DNA of 32,000 bases from Candidatus Saccharimonadota bacterium (GTDB taxonomy: Bacteria; Patescibacteriota; Gracilibacteria; BD1-5; UBA2023), in the NCBI GenBank assembly GCA_042852035.1, contig BAAFHK010000001.1, positions 120,001-152,000 of the forward strand, in the 5' to 3' direction. This document shows, one piece after another, positions 9,969 to 14,351 of the stretch. The notes under the pieces are model-generated. The model was not told where the DNA came from. It saw only the letters and a program-made list of their open reading frames with translations, and did not search any database. The position numbers and the translations under genes were made by a program. Positions within the stretch are counted from its first letter, which is position 1; each line of letters opens with the position of its first letter.

Positions 9969-10148
9969 ATATTCTAGTATATATAAAAAACAGAATTTTG
10001 TCATTTTTTCCTTGCATTTTCACATATTTTTTTATAATGTGCGTGCTTCAAACGTTTATCTACCGATAATCTCTCTTTATTTCCCGATTAAGATGAGAAA
10101 ATCGAAACATGGTCTTGTGACAGGAAGATGCATGTAACTTTTATTTTT

Positions 10149-10580
10149 ATGGCTAAAAAACCAACAAAAGTTGTAAAACTTCAACTTAAGGCTGGACAAG
10201 CAAACCCAGCACCTCCAGTTGGTACCGCTCTCGGTCCTACTGGTATCCAGATTGCAGAATTTTGTAAACAGTTCAACGACAAAACTAAGGACCAAATGGG
10301 AAAAATTCTCCCTACGGTTATCAATATCTACGAAGATCGAAGTTTTGACTTCTATACGAAGCAACCTCCGATGACTTGGTGGATTAAAGATGCGCTTAAG
10401 CTCGCATCTGGATCAAAAGAGGCTCATAAGACAAAAGTCGGACACCTCACTATGGCACAACTCAAGACCATTGCTGAAGGAAAAATGCCAGATCTCAATG
10501 CCAATGATCTCGATCATGCTATGTCTATCGTAGCAGGTTCTGCTCGTTCTATGGGTATCACTTCGGATCTCAAGAAATAA
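10149..10580 (+). CDS. rplK: 50S ribosomal protein L11
   Basis: [33 protein letters not shown]... to TAA at 10578-10580. The start is taken at the internal ATG of track ORF 10128-10580. No TGA codons. Confidence 0.96.
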
Positions 10581-10614
10581 TTTCTGAACTTAGGCCACTT
10601 GCGCCTAAGTTTAT

Positions 10615-10689
10615 GGCGCTATCGTCTAGTGGTTAGGACACGGGATTCTCATTCCCGGAACCGGAGTTCGATTCTCCGTAGCGCTACCA
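10615..10689 (+). tRNA. tRNA-Glu (anticodon CUC), CCA encoded
   Basis: Hand-folded cloverleaf. Acceptor GGCGCTA/TAGCGCT (G1-U72 wobble). D arm GTCT-AGTGGTTA-GGAC, with the TCGTCTAG..GGACAC context typical of bacterial tRNA-Glu. Anticodon arm CGGGA-TTCTCAT-TCCCG. T arm CGGAG-TTCGATT-CTCCG. Discriminator A followed by CCA. Confidence 0.9.
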
Positions 10690-10704
10690 TGTAAAAATCA
10701 AATT

Positions 10705-10728
10705 TCCTCACGAAAGTGAGGATTTTTT
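10705..10728 (+). terminator. intrinsic terminator after the tRNA
   Basis: Hairpin tcctcac-gaaa-gtgagga followed by tttttt. Confidence 0.8.
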
Positions 10729-10733
10729 AATAC

Positions 10734-10761
10734 AAAAAAAGGGGCCCCATGGGGGCCCCTG
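10734..10761 (-). terminator. intrinsic terminator of the 586-aa gene
   Basis: On the minus strand: aggggccccc-atg-gggcccc followed by ttttttt, starting 8 nt after the TGA stop. Confidence 0.8.
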
Positions 10762-10768
10762 AGCGAGC

Positions 10769-12529
10769 TCAGCGCTTCATGTCTTGGAGCAGACGAGCCC
10801 GTTGTTCGGGCGTCATCGCTTTCAGACGAGCATCGAGCTCGGCGCCATCAGCGCGCTGTATGCCATCCTTGCGGACGGCATCAGCGCGCGCAGCTGCACC
10901 ATCTTCTCGGGCCGTGCTTGCGAGCACTGGGATCGAGTCGTTCGAGAACGACTCGATATCCACAGTGCCGCTGCCCGTGTCCGAGTAGCCGATGGTGACG
11001 ATATCACCCTTCTCGGTGATAGGGAGGGTCACAGAGACCCCTGAGGTTGCCACGAAGATATGCTTCGGGCGGCCTTCTAGCCGGAAGTAGAAGAAGGTGT
11101 TGCCGCCACGGACGTCTTGTCCGAAGCGTTCCACCTTGCCACTGAACTTCTCCCGCTGTTTGAGCGGGTCGGCTACGGCCGAATTGCCTCGCGAGGCGAG
11201 CTTGCTCCGGTAGTTCCGGAGTGCTTCTTGTTTGGTGTCACCCACGCCGACGATTTCATAGTTCTCTACTGAGACCATCGCCACGGCCTTCACGAGTCCT
11301 GCGTTGTCCTTGAGGGGACCAACGTAGGTCGGTTTGCCGGCTATGTTGTAGATGATGAAGTTCGTCGCGTCGTACTTCATTGCCTGCGTAGCGCCTTCGG
11401 CCGATCTCTCGGCTTCACCTTCGGTCGCTCCCGCGACGTCATAGCGCTTGATAGCCTTGGTACGGCTGTCGATGAGGAGGAACGCCGTGATGCTGTTGTC
11501 CTTCCCCGTGGATGTCAGGCCCGAGTACCAGTAGGCTCGACCATCGTTGCCGTAGACGAGCCTGAGTTCCTTGTTCGAGGTCTTCAGGATTTCGTCATGA
11601 GCCCAGACAGCGTTCCACCAGCCGTGGATGTATTCACCCCACCAGTTGATTTGGTCATGGATGAAGTCTTCCGGCTGGATACGGTCCACCCATGCTGGTG
11701 CGTCTTCGATCGAGTACTCTTTCAGGGTGCCCGTCTCGACGTCGACAAGGATGATTCCAGTAGCGTCCTCTCCCGAGGCGCCAACCTTCTTCTGGTAGAT
11801 GGTGGCCACATAGTAGGGCCGGCCTTCGTCGTCGATCTCGAACGTGTAGTCCGTCACGCCACGGGTGGCGTAGCCGTTCATGTAGATGTGACGTTCGAGG
11901 TCTTGCCCGAAGTAGGCGTTCGGCTGGTAGCGAATATGGATCGGCTTGTCGCCAATCTTCTCGACCAGTCGGACGTTGTCCGGGTTCGTCGCCGAGACCA
12001 TGACATAACCAGGAGTACCTTCGCTCCCGAACTGGGACCACTTGCGGAACCCAGTATGCATGAGTGGAGCCACCCAGTAGAGGTCATCTTTCACCCGCTG
12101 GATGTGCATGTCACCGAGTACGACACGCGAGCCGAGACCAGCATCGCTGCCGAGTTGCTTGCTGCCAAGCTTCACGGCCATGTCGTGATCGACGATTCGC
12201 AGGTGGGCGGGATCCACCGGTGCAATGTCTTGGGTGAAGACCGATGTCTTGATATCACCCAGAAGGCTCCGGTAGTTGCCCGATTGGTGGATGCCCCAGG
12301 TGCTCACGGGCAGGATCACCACGAACATGACGAGTCCCAGGATCACTGGTGCTGCGCGCATGAGCGTGGCGCGATTGGCTTCATTCCTGCCAGCGAGCTG
12401 ACGGAAGATGAGCGGGATGCCGGCTGAGACGACCATGAGGATCCACAGGTCCGACCACCAGAAGTTGATGGTTGGAAGCGTCAGATAGGTCAGTAAAGCA
12501 CCTATTACAGCGATTGCGATATAGGTCAT
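10769..12529 (-). CDS. membrane-anchored protein of unknown function (about 3 N-terminal TM helices plus a ~500-aa soluble domain)
   Basis: 586-aa uninterrupted standard-code ORF. Strong SD (aaaggagaaggtcgcATG). GC-rich codon third positions. Hydrophobic segments IAIAVIGALLTYLTL, LWILMVVSAGIPLIF, APVILGLVMFVVILPV. Trp/Tyr-rich central region and an Ala/Arg/Asp-rich tail. TGA stop followed by its own terminator. Family not recognised. Confidence 0.85.
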   Translation of the reverse strand: MTYIAIAVIGALLTYLTLPTINFWWSDLWILMVVSAGIPLIFRQLAGRNEANRATLMRAAPVILGLVMFVVILPVSTWGIHQSGNYRSLLGDIKTSVFTQDIAPVDPAHLRIVDHDMAVKLGSKQLGSDAGLGSRVVLGDMHIQRVKDDLYWVAPLMHTGFRKWSQFGSEGTPGYVMVSATNPDNVRLVEKIGDKPIHIRYQPNAYFGQDLERHIYMNGYATRGVTDYTFEIDDEGRPYYVATIYQKKVGASGEDATGIILVDVETGTLKEYSIEDAPAWVDRIQPEDFIHDQINWWGEYIHGWWNAVWAHDEILKTSNKELRLVYGNDGRAYWYSGLTSTGKDNSITAFLLIDSRTKAIKRYDVAGATEGEAERSAEGATQAMKYDATNFIIYNIAGKPTYVGPLKDNAGLVKAVAMVSVENYEIVGVGDTKQEALRNYRSKLASRGNSAVADPLKQREKFSGKVERFGQDVRGGNTFFYFRLEGRPKHIFVATSGVSVTLPITEKGDIVTIGYSDTGSGTVDIESFSNDSIPVLASTAREDGAAARADAVRKDGIQRADGAELDARLKAMTPEQRARLLQDMKR

Positions 12530-12568
12530 GCGACCTTCTCCTTTCCTTCGAGAAGAATGTTAAAGAAT

Positions 12569-12581
12569 TGCTGTTACAGCA
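12569..12581. promoter_or_regulatory. perfect 13-nt palindrome TGCTGT-T-ACAGCA in the divergent intergenic region (candidate operator)
   Basis: Read directly from the sequence. It lies 40-52 nt upstream of the ATG of the 586-aa gene. Confidence 0.3.
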
Positions 12582-12634
12582 GCTTTTAAATTATACATTA
12601 ATTATTAGTTATAGCAAATAATCACATCATAATA

Positions 12635-12662
12635 TTGACAATATCCTGAAACTCTATACTAT
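12635..12662 (+). promoter_or_regulatory. candidate sigma70-type promoter for the 135-aa ORF
   Basis: TTGACA (12635-12640), a 16-nt spacer, then TACTAT (12657-12662). An overlapping TATACT sits at a 14-nt spacing. About 90 nt upstream of ATG 12753. Confidence 0.35.
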
Positions 12663-12752
12663 CATCGAACCCCTTGATGGGGCAAAAAGTGTCATGCTCG
12701 CCTGATCATCGAGTATGATGCACCTACAACGTGAGTTCCTGGAGATTTGTGA

Positions 12753-13160
12753 ATGGCAAACAGTAGTAATAAGCCCGCGGTCATTTTTGGCCACAATGTT
12801 GGTCGTGCTGAGGAGGACCTGAACATCCAGCAAGACCTCGGACGTCGGCGATTCGTGCCGGTCGCGTTCCGCGTCGGAACCCACAAGAACGAAGCGGGTA
12901 CCAATACGTCCACGCTGAAGTTATTGATTTGGGCAACCCGAAAAGGGCTCGGAAACAAGATGACGCTCGATGGCTTCCTCCCGTACTTTGCGGAGTATTG
13001 GAATGAGACCAATAACGGCACTCGCGCACCTTCCTGGTCGAGTCATCGCAACTTGCATGAACTTTGGCGTCTGTGGCGGCGTAATCCCAAGACCCTCGTG
13101 TCCGATGTTTTTGAGCTTTACGGCTCGGCATTTGCCCCGAAGGAGTCTGCCACTACCTGA
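12753..13160 (+). CDS. hypothetical 135-aa protein (island gene 2)
   Basis: ATG preceded by ggag 8 nt upstream. The composition is protein-like, unlike the Arg/Ser/Cys-rich shadow ORFs on the opposite strand. TGA stop, with a terminator about 100 nt downstream. No family recognised. Confidence 0.6.
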   Translation: MANSSNKPAVIFGHNVGRAEEDLNIQQDLGRRRFVPVAFRVGTHKNEAGTNTSTLKLLIWATRKGLGNKMTLDGFLPYFAEYWNETNNGTRAPSWSSHRNLHELWRLWRRNPKTLVSDVFELYGSAFAPKESATT

Positions 13161-13256
13161 CCAAGCTCACGAATACACAAACAAAATAGTTCCTGTGTAG
13201 AAATCAACCACTGATACTGGGTTTACCGATCCAGTTGTCACGTTCAGATCGATTTC

Positions 13257-13286
13257 AACCCCCTTACCCGGGGGTTTTCGTTTTTT
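13257..13286 (+). terminator. intrinsic terminator at the right edge of the island
   Basis: aaccccc-ttaccc-gggggtt followed by ttcgtttttt. Confidence 0.7.
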
Positions 13287-13308
13287 ATGAGGAATATTTC
13301 AATTTAAC

Positions 13309-13336
13309 TTGAGTCAGGTCGCTATCTCTATATACT
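13309..13336 (+). promoter_or_regulatory. candidate promoter of the desaturase gene
   Basis: TTGAGT, a 16-nt spacer, then TATACT. It ends 22 nt before ATG 13359. Confidence 0.4.
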
Positions 13337-13358: not shown

Positions 13359-14351
13359 ATGGAAACCAATAATAAACAAAAATATAGTGAGCTATTCGGA
13401 GAATTAAGAAATCTCCTTATCGAAAAAAAACTTAACGGAACGGATTGGAAGTATGGTATTATAATGCTTACCATAGCAGGATTTCTCTATGCCATTGGGA
13501 TTTATTTTATGCCTCTATTCGGTCCGGTTCTCACAGTTTTCTATTTTTCTCTTCTCTTTGTTGAGATGGGGTATATTTCTCATGATATCATTCATAATCA
13601 ATACTTTCAGAGCGTGCGCATGAATCGAGCGATAGCCATGATCTATGCGAATATGGGTATCGGACTTTCATCATCCTGGTGGATTGAGAAGCACAATGTT
13701 GGGCACCATAATTCGACCAATTCTAATATTCATGATACGGATATTAGAGATTATGATGAGATTTTTACAGGAAGAGTGGGGAAGCATCCATTTTTTCATA
13801 AACACAAAAAAGTACTCTTTTGGATTGCTCCGATATTTCTCTATTTCAATCTTCTGATTGAGTCGTATAAATTCCTTTTCCGTAAAAAATATTTTCCTGA
13901 AATGTTGATGAATCTACTGTTCCTCCTTTTTCCAACATTATTGATAATCCAATTTGGTGCTATCATTTGAATTTTTGTATTTCTTGCTATAGGAGTTATT
14001 GTCGGAATGATTCTTGGTTATGTATTTATGGTGAACCATATTGGACTCGAGATTATCGATGGTCTTCATATAAGAGAATATGCATGGATTGATCTCCAGA
14101 CTCGCACCTCACGTAATATCTTATGAACACGTCTTACGACTGAGATTTTTTGAGGTCTTGATAAACAGATTGAACACCACCTCTTCCCACAGATTTCGAG
14201 GAGAAAGATTAGGAAGGTTGCAAAGGTGGTAAAGGAGTTTTGTATAGCAAATAATCTTCCATATCATGAAGTTTCCTTTTTTGAGGGACTTTCAGAAATA
14301 GCGCATACCCTAAAAACAGGAGAGACGCTCAATATTGGCAAATCCTTATAG
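13359..14351 (+). CDS. membrane fatty-acid desaturase (three His-box family)
   Basis: ATG 13359 to TAG 14349-14351, 330 aa with 3 in-frame TGA. His boxes HDIIH, HNVGHH and QIEHHLFP, with hydrophobic stretches between them. Confidence 0.88.

Follow-up and report, generated by a model that had tools for sequence, protein, structure and literature searches.

The closest described counterparts of a chromosomal segment with deviant GC content and codon usage are tRNA-linked genomic islands, which also stand 3′ of a tRNA gene, and horizontally acquired genes undergoing amelioration, in which GC>AT decay is directional. Here we analyze such a GC-rich segment in a 32,000-nt stretch of contig BAAFHK010000001.1 from assembly GCA_042852035.1 (the window), which carries a gene for a 586-amino-acid (aa) membrane protein on the minus strand (the large gene) and, divergently oriented, a gene for a 135-aa protein of the HopJ family on the plus strand (the small or HopJ gene). 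The segment differs from tRNA-linked islands in lacking an integrase and an att duplication and in that its presence and absence in relatives do not follow a single unit. It differs from islands and ameliorated genes alike in that acquisition would here have crossed a genetic-code boundary, with stop codons turned into sense codons.

The gene products also have described counterparts. The small protein resembles the HopJ family (PF08888) and its member VPA0580 in profile and in fold, but the window clade is very divergent, resides in episymbionts that belong to the candidate phyla radiation (CPR), is GC-rich, mostly ends in TGA, and always has a structured RNA 3′ of the gene. The large protein is homologous to an unnamed family that includes a Flammeovirga "cell shape-determining protein," the "membrane associated protein" B521_0014 of phage 521B, and BFVD entry A0A6G5YLZ4, from which the window copy is set apart by being GC-rich and TGA-terminated inside a recoded genome; phage and plasmid members are 23 to 31% identical to it. 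The RNA recalls small RNAs derived from 3′ untranslated regions (UTRs) or embedded in terminators in its conserved multihairpin structure, which stands right after a coding sequence (CDS) and closes with an intrinsic terminator, but the window element has no Rfam family match.

The GC-rich segment is real and compositionally foreign, and the best explanation of its structure is two old, separately inherited, self-contained monocistronic units that stand back to back, not one inserted cassette. For their origin we favor the view that both were acquired horizontally long ago from a donor of very high GC content that used the standard genetic code, have since been inherited under purifying selection, and are still ameliorating; we assign this reading a probability of roughly 0.55.

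Host organism and relatives of the two genes

The window comes from the "Candidatus Altimarinota" metagenome-assembled genome (MAG) HHAS10: its HopJ open reading frame (ORF) and downstream desaturase gene match HHAS10_01280 and HHAS10_01290, which lie on a 750-kb contig, at 100% identity, and protein P0121 is 100% identical to the small protein of the window. HHAS10 is a Zoogloea episymbiont within JAEDAM01 (o__BD1-5, f__UBA2023) that was located by fluorescence in situ hybridization among Zoogloea cells in activated sludge and that encodes type IV pili and ComEC (PMC11393006); UGA is reassigned to glycine in c__JAEDAM01 (PMC11393006, PMC9530719).

GC-rich copies of the genes lie inside low-GC, TGA-recoded backbones at the loci L001/L002, L003, L004, L005 to L007, L008/L009, L096, and L097, which come from six or more independent assemblies. 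Of the 8,000 candidates scored, only P0001 to P0004 exceeded 59% identity to the large protein. The window protein is 98% identical (aa) to that of L003 and 84% identical to that of L001/L002 (two runs), where a gene of 56% GC stands in a 39% GC backbone whose genes contain 4 to 19 in-frame TGA codons each. Identity falls to 70% at L005 to L007 (three runs) and to 59% at L008/L009 (GCA_031539165.1, a recoded backbone of 44% GC), where the large gene ends in TGA and has a GC content at third codon positions (GC3) of 0.49, against 0.40 for gyrB. For the HopJ gene, L004 was found via the small protein (HopJ 57% and desaturase 81% identical, aa), and L096, L097, and L098 are lineages found by a desaturase search. 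L096 encodes a HopJ protein of 70% identity (GC3 0.79, TGA end), L097 one of 50% identity (TGA end), and L098 has no HopJ gene. The HopJ gene with its RNA is 5′ of the same desaturase gene in four lineages (the window, L004, L096, and L097), with desaturases that are 71 to 81% identical.

Composition and genetic-code signature

The sharp rise in GC that the earlier note had described at the borders of the segment was borne out: GC is ~55 to 60% at 10740 to 13160, against 36 to 40% in the backbone. Counted over 200-nt intervals, it is 0.555 to 0.63 across 10700 to 12499, 0.35 to 0.395 in the intergenic region (12500 to 12799), 0.52 to 0.565 across 12700 to 13199, and back to 0.30 to 0.40 beyond 13300, and elsewhere in the window no 1-kb interval exceeds 0.44. 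GC3 reaches 0.73 in the large gene (z = 10.7) and 0.64 in the small one (z = 8.3), with a backbone mean of 0.319 (standard deviation, 0.038; 28 window ORFs).

In the same 28 ORFs, TGA accounts for 33% of glycine codons (224/674) and for 2.5% of codons overall. The two genes contain no TGA among 258 glycine codons, counted over nine copies from five or six lineages; in the window, this is 0/53 for the large gene (P = 4e-7 for finding none in 586 backbone-like codons) and 0/10 for the small gene. The lack of internal TGA is consistent with genes that arose outside the recoded lineage. The earlier note had taken the presence of the segment in relatives, with TGA sense codons, as a sign against its reading; the genes are indeed present in relatives, but the TGA sense codons are not.

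TGA stands at the end of the conserved protein in 8 of the 9 copies, and the sequence beyond it is not conserved as protein. Read in code 25, the large ORF gains 14 aa, running to 10727 through its own terminator hairpin, and the small ORF gains 49 codons, running to 13307; the NCBI annotation gives HHAS10_01280 as 184 aa because code 25 reads past the TGA to that position. The codon of L004 (1958 to 1960) homologous to window 13158 to 13160 is TAA, against TGA in the window, L096, L097, and L005, and the L004 HopJ gene has the lowest GC3 (0.56). Judged from these sequences, the TAA looks like a stop repair after transfer into a genome in which UGA is glycine.

Three further loci bear on this signature. 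At L005 (5938 to 8460, plus strand), the large ORF would gain ~250 codons in code 25, crossing the HopJ gene in antisense. Were its TGA read through efficiently, a long junk tail would result, which raises the question of how translation ends there. At L008 (1 to 660, minus strand), a second, unrelated gene has a GC content of 0.60, a GC3 of 0.80, no in-frame TGA, and an AT-rich promoter region, and standard-code-looking genes of this sort may form a class in these genomes. On a Saccharibacteria MAG contig (L012, 4089 to 5819), a large-gene homologue has a GC content of 0.59 and a GC3 of 0.76, against 0.49 for the rest.

Purifying selection and amelioration

Comparison of the large gene of the window with that of L003 gave a dS of 0.10 and a dN/dS of 0.09, and this divergence certainly arose inside the recoded lineage. 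The corresponding values are 0.71 and 0.13 against L001 and 1.09 and 0.19 against L005, and for the HopJ gene of the window against L096, dN is 0.25 and dS is 1.72 (dN/dS, ~0.15). Ratios this low denote purifying selection and indicate that both genes are functional in these hosts.

Polarized synonymous changes in the large gene run predominantly from GC to AT, with 22 GC>AT against 11 AT>GC changes on the window branch and 38 against 9 on the L001 branch, although parsimony inflates this bias on deeper branches; for recent changes on the window and L003 branches combined, the counts are 18 and 5. Amelioration of the large gene is in progress. At 4-fold-degenerate sites where the amino acid is the same in both copies, mismatches in the large gene amount to 0.37 between the window and L001 and to 0.51 to 0.57 against L005, with a GC content at these sites (GC4) of ~0.70 in all three copies. 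An F81 model of decay toward a GC content of 0.32 reproduces these values only with an ancestral GC4 of ~0.9 to 1.0, a value usual for genomes of 65% GC, that of the Zoogloea host included. We also considered GC3 held at equilibrium and set it aside, since simple decay from an ancestor of very high GC roughly accommodates the large gene and only the HopJ gene is hard to fit. The HopJ copies of the window, L096, L097, and L005 have 4-fold mismatches of 0.46 to 0.57 and a GC4 of 0.63 to 0.87, whereas the desaturases of matching pairs are near saturation (0.64 to 0.70).

Origin of the genes

Under the favored reading, the coding regions would have entered an ancestor of one subclade of the JAEDAM01/BD1-5 episymbionts, which read UGA as glycine, perhaps in a single ancient acquisition, and would afterwards have been inherited and rearranged under purifying selection with slow loss of GC. 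With no UGA stop in the host, TGA codons that were ancestrally stops would now be read as glycine, so that either the HHAS10 proteins would end in nonconserved tails (14 and 49 aa) or the ribosome would reach the end of the transcript; the L004 lineage would have repaired its stop to TAA.

Several observations weigh against this origin. No GC-rich standard-code donor was found, and the homologues above 59% identity are all in recoded low-GC backbones. A neighbor-joining tree places the clade beside very low-GC relatives with TAA or TAG stops and not with Proteobacteria. The promoters and UTRs are AT-rich and are therefore not unchanged imports from a GC-rich donor. The large-gene fit at the depth of L005 requires an extreme ancestral GC4 of ~0.95 to 1.0, and since the neighboring desaturase is near saturation, the HopJ GC4 is predicted to be 0.5 or less, below what is observed; L004 alone shows the value that decay predicts. 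The trees of HopJ plus RNA (window grouped with L096; 69% aa, 77% nt) and of the desaturase (window grouped with L004; 81% versus 72%) disagree within ~1.5 kb, which suggests later exchange between lineages and not strict vertical descent, although the incongruence is weak because the 4-fold site counts are small (22 to 52). The excess GC of HopJ and the tree conflict may reflect either such exchange or constraint on synonymous sites. Finally, by a rough estimate, the lack of TGA sense codons together with the terminal TGA is not by itself statistically compelling given incomplete amelioration.

Some of these observations would follow if the genes were native to the CPR and their GC-rich, TGA-free state were actively maintained, by synonymous selection or by GC-biased gene conversion (gBGC) at recombination-prone host-interaction genes, with the same bias having driven TAA to TGA. 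The low-GC neighbors in the tree (18 to 28% GC; GC3, 0.12 to 0.24) are the nearest outgroup homologues and share the "ELDAR..KMTPE" helix at the C terminus; they include a named Gracilibacteria MAG and a relative with in-frame TGA. This placement leaves direct transfer from Proteobacteria unsupported by homology; the Zoogloea host was also considered as the donor, and no Betaproteobacteria appear among the top matches listed. Native maintenance would also account for the high GC4 of HopJ beside a saturated gene and for a GC>AT excess that is strongest on the shortest branches, as if such changes were later purged. We nonetheless think it unlikely: to our knowledge, a GC3 shift from ~0.3 to 0.7 far exceeds the known effects of gBGC in bacteria, GC>AT changes outnumber AT>GC changes on longer branches too, decay does occur in L004 and L008, and why only these genes are affected is left unexplained.

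An equally doubtful alternative is recurrent refreshment, in which GC-rich alleles, taken up through ComEC and the type IV pilus from other JAEDAM01 lineages or an unsampled standard-code pool, would repeatedly replace the resident copies by homologous recombination. It draws on the conflict between the HopJ-plus-RNA and desaturase trees, on a HopJ 4-fold divergence below that of the desaturase, and on the competence genes of HHAS10 (PMC11393006), and the RNA element, tRNA, and promoters could serve as recombination anchors. No reservoir sequences were found in 5.8 billion protein clusters, the Joint Genome Institute (JGI) metagenomes, or IMG/VR, and the incongruence is the weak one noted above.

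There is, lastly, a slim chance that the genes are kept clean for the standard code, with no UGA sense codons, a terminal UGA, GC-rich codons, and portable sigma70, Shine-Dalgarno (SD), and terminator signals. If so, they may need to work in, or exchange with, a GC-rich standard-code host resembling Zoogloea. Alternatively, a UGA placed just before a strong structure or terminator may be a functional end of translation in an organism that elsewhere reads it as glycine, in which case the HopJ RNA would be part of the mechanism.

Two units with separate histories

Unit 1 runs from 12617 to 10733 (minus strand) and encodes a protein predicted to be membrane anchored and extracytoplasmic, and unit 2 runs from 12635 to 13292 (plus strand) and comprises the gene for the HopJ-fold protein and the structured RNA ending in a terminator.

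L001 is colinear with the window from 12620 to 10610, through the promoter, the CDS, the GGGGCCCC terminator, the junction, and tRNA-Glu, and the junction between the tRNA-Glu and large-gene terminators, "TTTTTTAATACAAAAAAAGGGGCCCC" (given also as "TTTTTTAATACAAAAAAAGGGG"), is identical in L001. Its outer flanks are unrelated to the window, consisting of a cluster of tRNA-Pro/Ile/Gly genes and, at the opposite end, DUF2339/TSP_3, and contain no HopJ gene. The tRNA-Glu of L001 itself stands in a tRNA-Glu/Pro/Ile/Gly cluster, unlike that of the window. A homologue of the GGGGCCCC hairpin lies 3′ of the large-gene TGA in both L001 and L005, and the tRNA-Glu of the window is near-identical in each of them. 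At L005 to L007, the order is large gene, convergent HopJ gene, tRNA-Glu, unlike the divergent arrangement of the window. On the other side, the L096 HopJ gene is directly 5′ of the desaturase, and synteny with the window then extends over ~6 kb, L097 has one additional gene between the two, and the large gene was not found in the 1 to 1.4 kb of upstream sequence of L004, L096, and L097.

Homology with L001 extends no further than 12620, and that with L004 sets in at 12634, so that the break falls exactly between the two −35 boxes. What the earlier note called a shared control region is therefore AT-rich, as it said, but consists of two abutting promoters of separately inherited units.

The earlier note had taken the segment for a recent insertion next to tRNA-Glu, an accessory cassette of two genes that would make up a single undescribed system. 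The sharp GC borders, the tRNA adjacency, the lack of TGA sense codons, and the TGA ends of both genes are what such an insertion would show, and the two genes are adjacent at L005/L006 too. Neither part of this reading holds up well, and we regard it as very improbable. The insertion is not recent, given that the tRNA-Glu junction is common to L001 at a dS of 0.71 and that the HopJ-desaturase synteny spans four lineages at 71 to 81% aa identity. It is not one cassette either, since each gene occurs without the other (the large gene alone in L001, the small gene alone in L004, L096, and L097) and the two are convergent, not divergent, in L005 to L007. Among 80 Genome Taxonomy Database (GTDB) loci of the large-gene family there was no conserved neighbor gene, only Flavobacterium-specific synteny, and no nearby HopJ gene. 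PADLOC gave 0 hits, and with the genes also found apart, nothing marks them as a two-gene antiphage defense or toxin-antitoxin system. A search of the JGI metagenomes with a tRNA-Glu pattern, for an empty site or relatives, was without match.

That the segment is an assembly chimera, with a piece of a GC-rich organism misjoined into the MAG, has the abrupt change of composition as its sole point and is next to impossible, as L003 (SRR14932559) matches window 10684 to 12744 at 97% nt identity, covering the intergenic and tRNA sides, and assemblies of seven or more other runs contain junctions of the same GC-rich-in-AT-rich kind.

A structured RNA downstream of the HopJ gene

Directly 3′ of the HopJ stop is an RNA element of ~125 nt, with a closing stem around three hairpins of which the last is the terminator; this structured RNA, tied to a HopJ-fold gene, is undescribed. 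The ~130 nt from the stop to the T-tract are conserved above the level of the CDS across five lineages, with invariant blocks that include CTCACGAATAC, GTAGAAATC, and GATTTCA. Indels in this region are not multiples of 3, which indicates that it is not coding. The RNAalifold consensus comprises 37 pairs, 10 of which show compensatory changes, and the paired fraction of cells is 96.7%; the observed values were not reached in any of 500 shuffles, and slid controls all gave zero double changes. The window sequence folds likewise alone (−37.3 kcal/mol; z = −3.1).

A covariance model of the element matched six loci, once each and always directly after a HopJ gene, and nowhere else in 183 kb. The RNA follows HopJ even in L005 and L097, where HopJ is not adjacent to the desaturase. 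Rfam gave no hit in 13155 to 13300 at an E value of ≤1, and a search with the RNA pattern was without match in the JGI metagenomes and IMG/VR. A bacterial element of the selenocysteine insertion sequence (SECIS) type, which would recode the UGA, was considered and rejected, as the frame past the UGA is not conserved (indels that are not multiples of 3; TAA in L004).

The HopJ-family protein

The earlier note recognized a family for neither protein, yet both have one. The window protein matches PF08888 marginally, at 27.4 bits against a gathering cutoff of 27.0, and 8 of 11 clade members match the model, with a best E value of 9.6e-14. A profile of the clade matched PDB entries 2qhq/2qm2, the putative HopJ effector VPA0580 of Vibrio parahaemolyticus, with an E value of 2.5e-5. 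In a Foldseek search of the PDB with the AlphaFold model (predicted local distance difference test [pLDDT], 87.1), only the same two entries had E values below 0.01 (probability 1.0; template modeling [TM] score, 0.48 to 0.60). The clade is tiny, with 9 relatives among 1.84 billion representative proteins. The family name implies delivery by type III secretion; the 32-kb window contains no type III secretion gene, and we know of no type III secretion system in CPR episymbionts.

The 586-aa membrane protein

The large protein belongs by full-length homology and common architecture to an unnamed family of proteins with three transmembrane helices and an ectodomain. In its AlphaFold model (pLDDT, 84.4; predicted TM score, 0.75), three N-terminal helices (residues 2 to 77), read as transmembrane, precede a β-rich ectodomain of repeated helix-plus-sheet units (~90 to 450), a β-barrel resembling an oligonucleotide/oligosaccharide-binding (OB) fold (459 to 530), and two C-terminal helices (540 to 585). 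At least 2,737 of the 8,000 candidates scored are homologues at an E value of ≤1e-3, and 584 of the 600 GTDB matches listed are confirmed relatives. The family includes members from Flavobacterium, Clostridioides, Terrisporobacter, Pelosinus, Gracilibacteria, and Saccharibacteria, with full-length identities of 41 to 50% to members from Bacteroidota, Clostridia, and CPR, and its alignment has 53 invariant columns.

Pfam, NCBIfam, PADLOC, and PHROGs gave no match to the large protein, and 43 family members scanned against Pfam and NCBIfam yielded no usable model match. A sequence-profile search of the PDB was likewise without match, and in a fold search all full-length alignments had TM scores below 0.2, with weak propeller-like and OB-like resemblances; the confident hits were short, local, and OB-like. 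A0A6G5YLZ4 in BFVD is a full-length homologue with a TM score of 0.69. Phage and plasmid collections held only distant homologues (23 to 47% identity), among them proteins of Lactobacillus and Enterococcus phages and of plasmids, and IMG/VR held no close relative. Two of the phage homologues, ORF25 of vB_Lcr_AB1 (L094, 5911 to 7587) and B521_0014 of 521B (L095, 4890 to 6593), are 23 to 24% identical to the large protein over ~80 to 85% coverage, and in the temperate Lactobacillus phage vB_Lcr_AB1, the gene stands between the replication genes and an ArpU regulator.

Layout of the segment and neighboring genes

The two divergent ORFs reported by the earlier note, each with its own SD sequence and terminator, were confirmed (Table 1). 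AAGGAG and GGAG, which are SD-like, stand 5′ of the two ATG codons, and the large-gene terminator starts 9 nt past the TGA. A small hairpin in the large-gene 5′ UTR (GCTGCTGTAACAGCA, 12568 to 12582) is kept in L001 and L003, and L005 retains it in part.

Table 1. Coordinates of features of the GC-rich segment and its flanks (window positions unless a locus is named)
Feature	Position	Strand	Basis or remark
tRNA-Glu(CUC), backbone gene	10615–10689	+	ARAGORN; Rfam tRNA, 61.8 bits
AT-rich terminator hairpin of tRNA-Glu	10705–10722	+	Terminator scan
Large-gene intrinsic terminator	10733–10760 (hairpin 10760–10740)	−	9-bp stem with 8 G-C pairs, then T7
Large gene, 586-aa membrane protein	10769–12529	−	TGA at 10769–10771
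Large-gene promoter + 5′ UTR + SD unit	12530–12617	−	Conserved in L001 and L003, partly in L005
Large-gene AT-rich promoter, TTGCTA-16-TATAAT	12617–12590	−	Consensus scan, sigma70-like
HopJ-gene promoter, TTGACA-16-TACTAT	12635–12662	+	Consensus scan, sigma70-like
HopJ-gene promoter + 5′ UTR + SD	12635–12752	+	Homology with L004 from 12634
Small gene, 135-aa HopJ-family protein	12753–13160	+	TGA at 13158–13160
Structured RNA element	13166–13292	+	Covariation; ends in terminator 13257–13276
Desaturase promoter	13309–13336	+	Promoter scan
FA_desaturase CDS, HHAS10_01290, backbone	13359–14351	+	3 in-frame TGA
RNA element copy, L004	1958–2108
RNA element copy, L005	7795–7945	−
RNA element copy, L096	1417–1560
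RNA element copy, L097	1401–1546

As the earlier note had stated, mobility genes and repeats are missing: no integrase, recombinase, or transposase was present among the neighboring genes of the window (PilB-like T2SSE, TilS, rplK, the desaturase, an RlmL-like methyltransferase, a metallo-β-lactamase [MBL]-fold protein, and DUF1361), no direct repeats were found flanking the segment, and the 26-nt 3′ end of the tRNA has no second copy in the window at ≤3 mismatches. After rplK (window 10128 to 10689) come tRNA-Glu and then the GC-rich genes, and rplA of the usual rplKAJL cluster is not there.

Implications for recoded episymbionts

Our guess is that both genes have envelope or host-contact roles in the episymbiont. 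If old acquisition from a standard-code donor is correct, the locus would be a natural case of standard-code genes with TGA stops crossing a code boundary and surviving under purifying selection in episymbionts that read UGA as glycine. Both the "code barrier to horizontal transfer" and the way in which it is resolved, from TGA to TAA, could then be tested directly in a CPR organism with a known host. The finding also flags a very widespread family of membrane proteins that is without a curated model.

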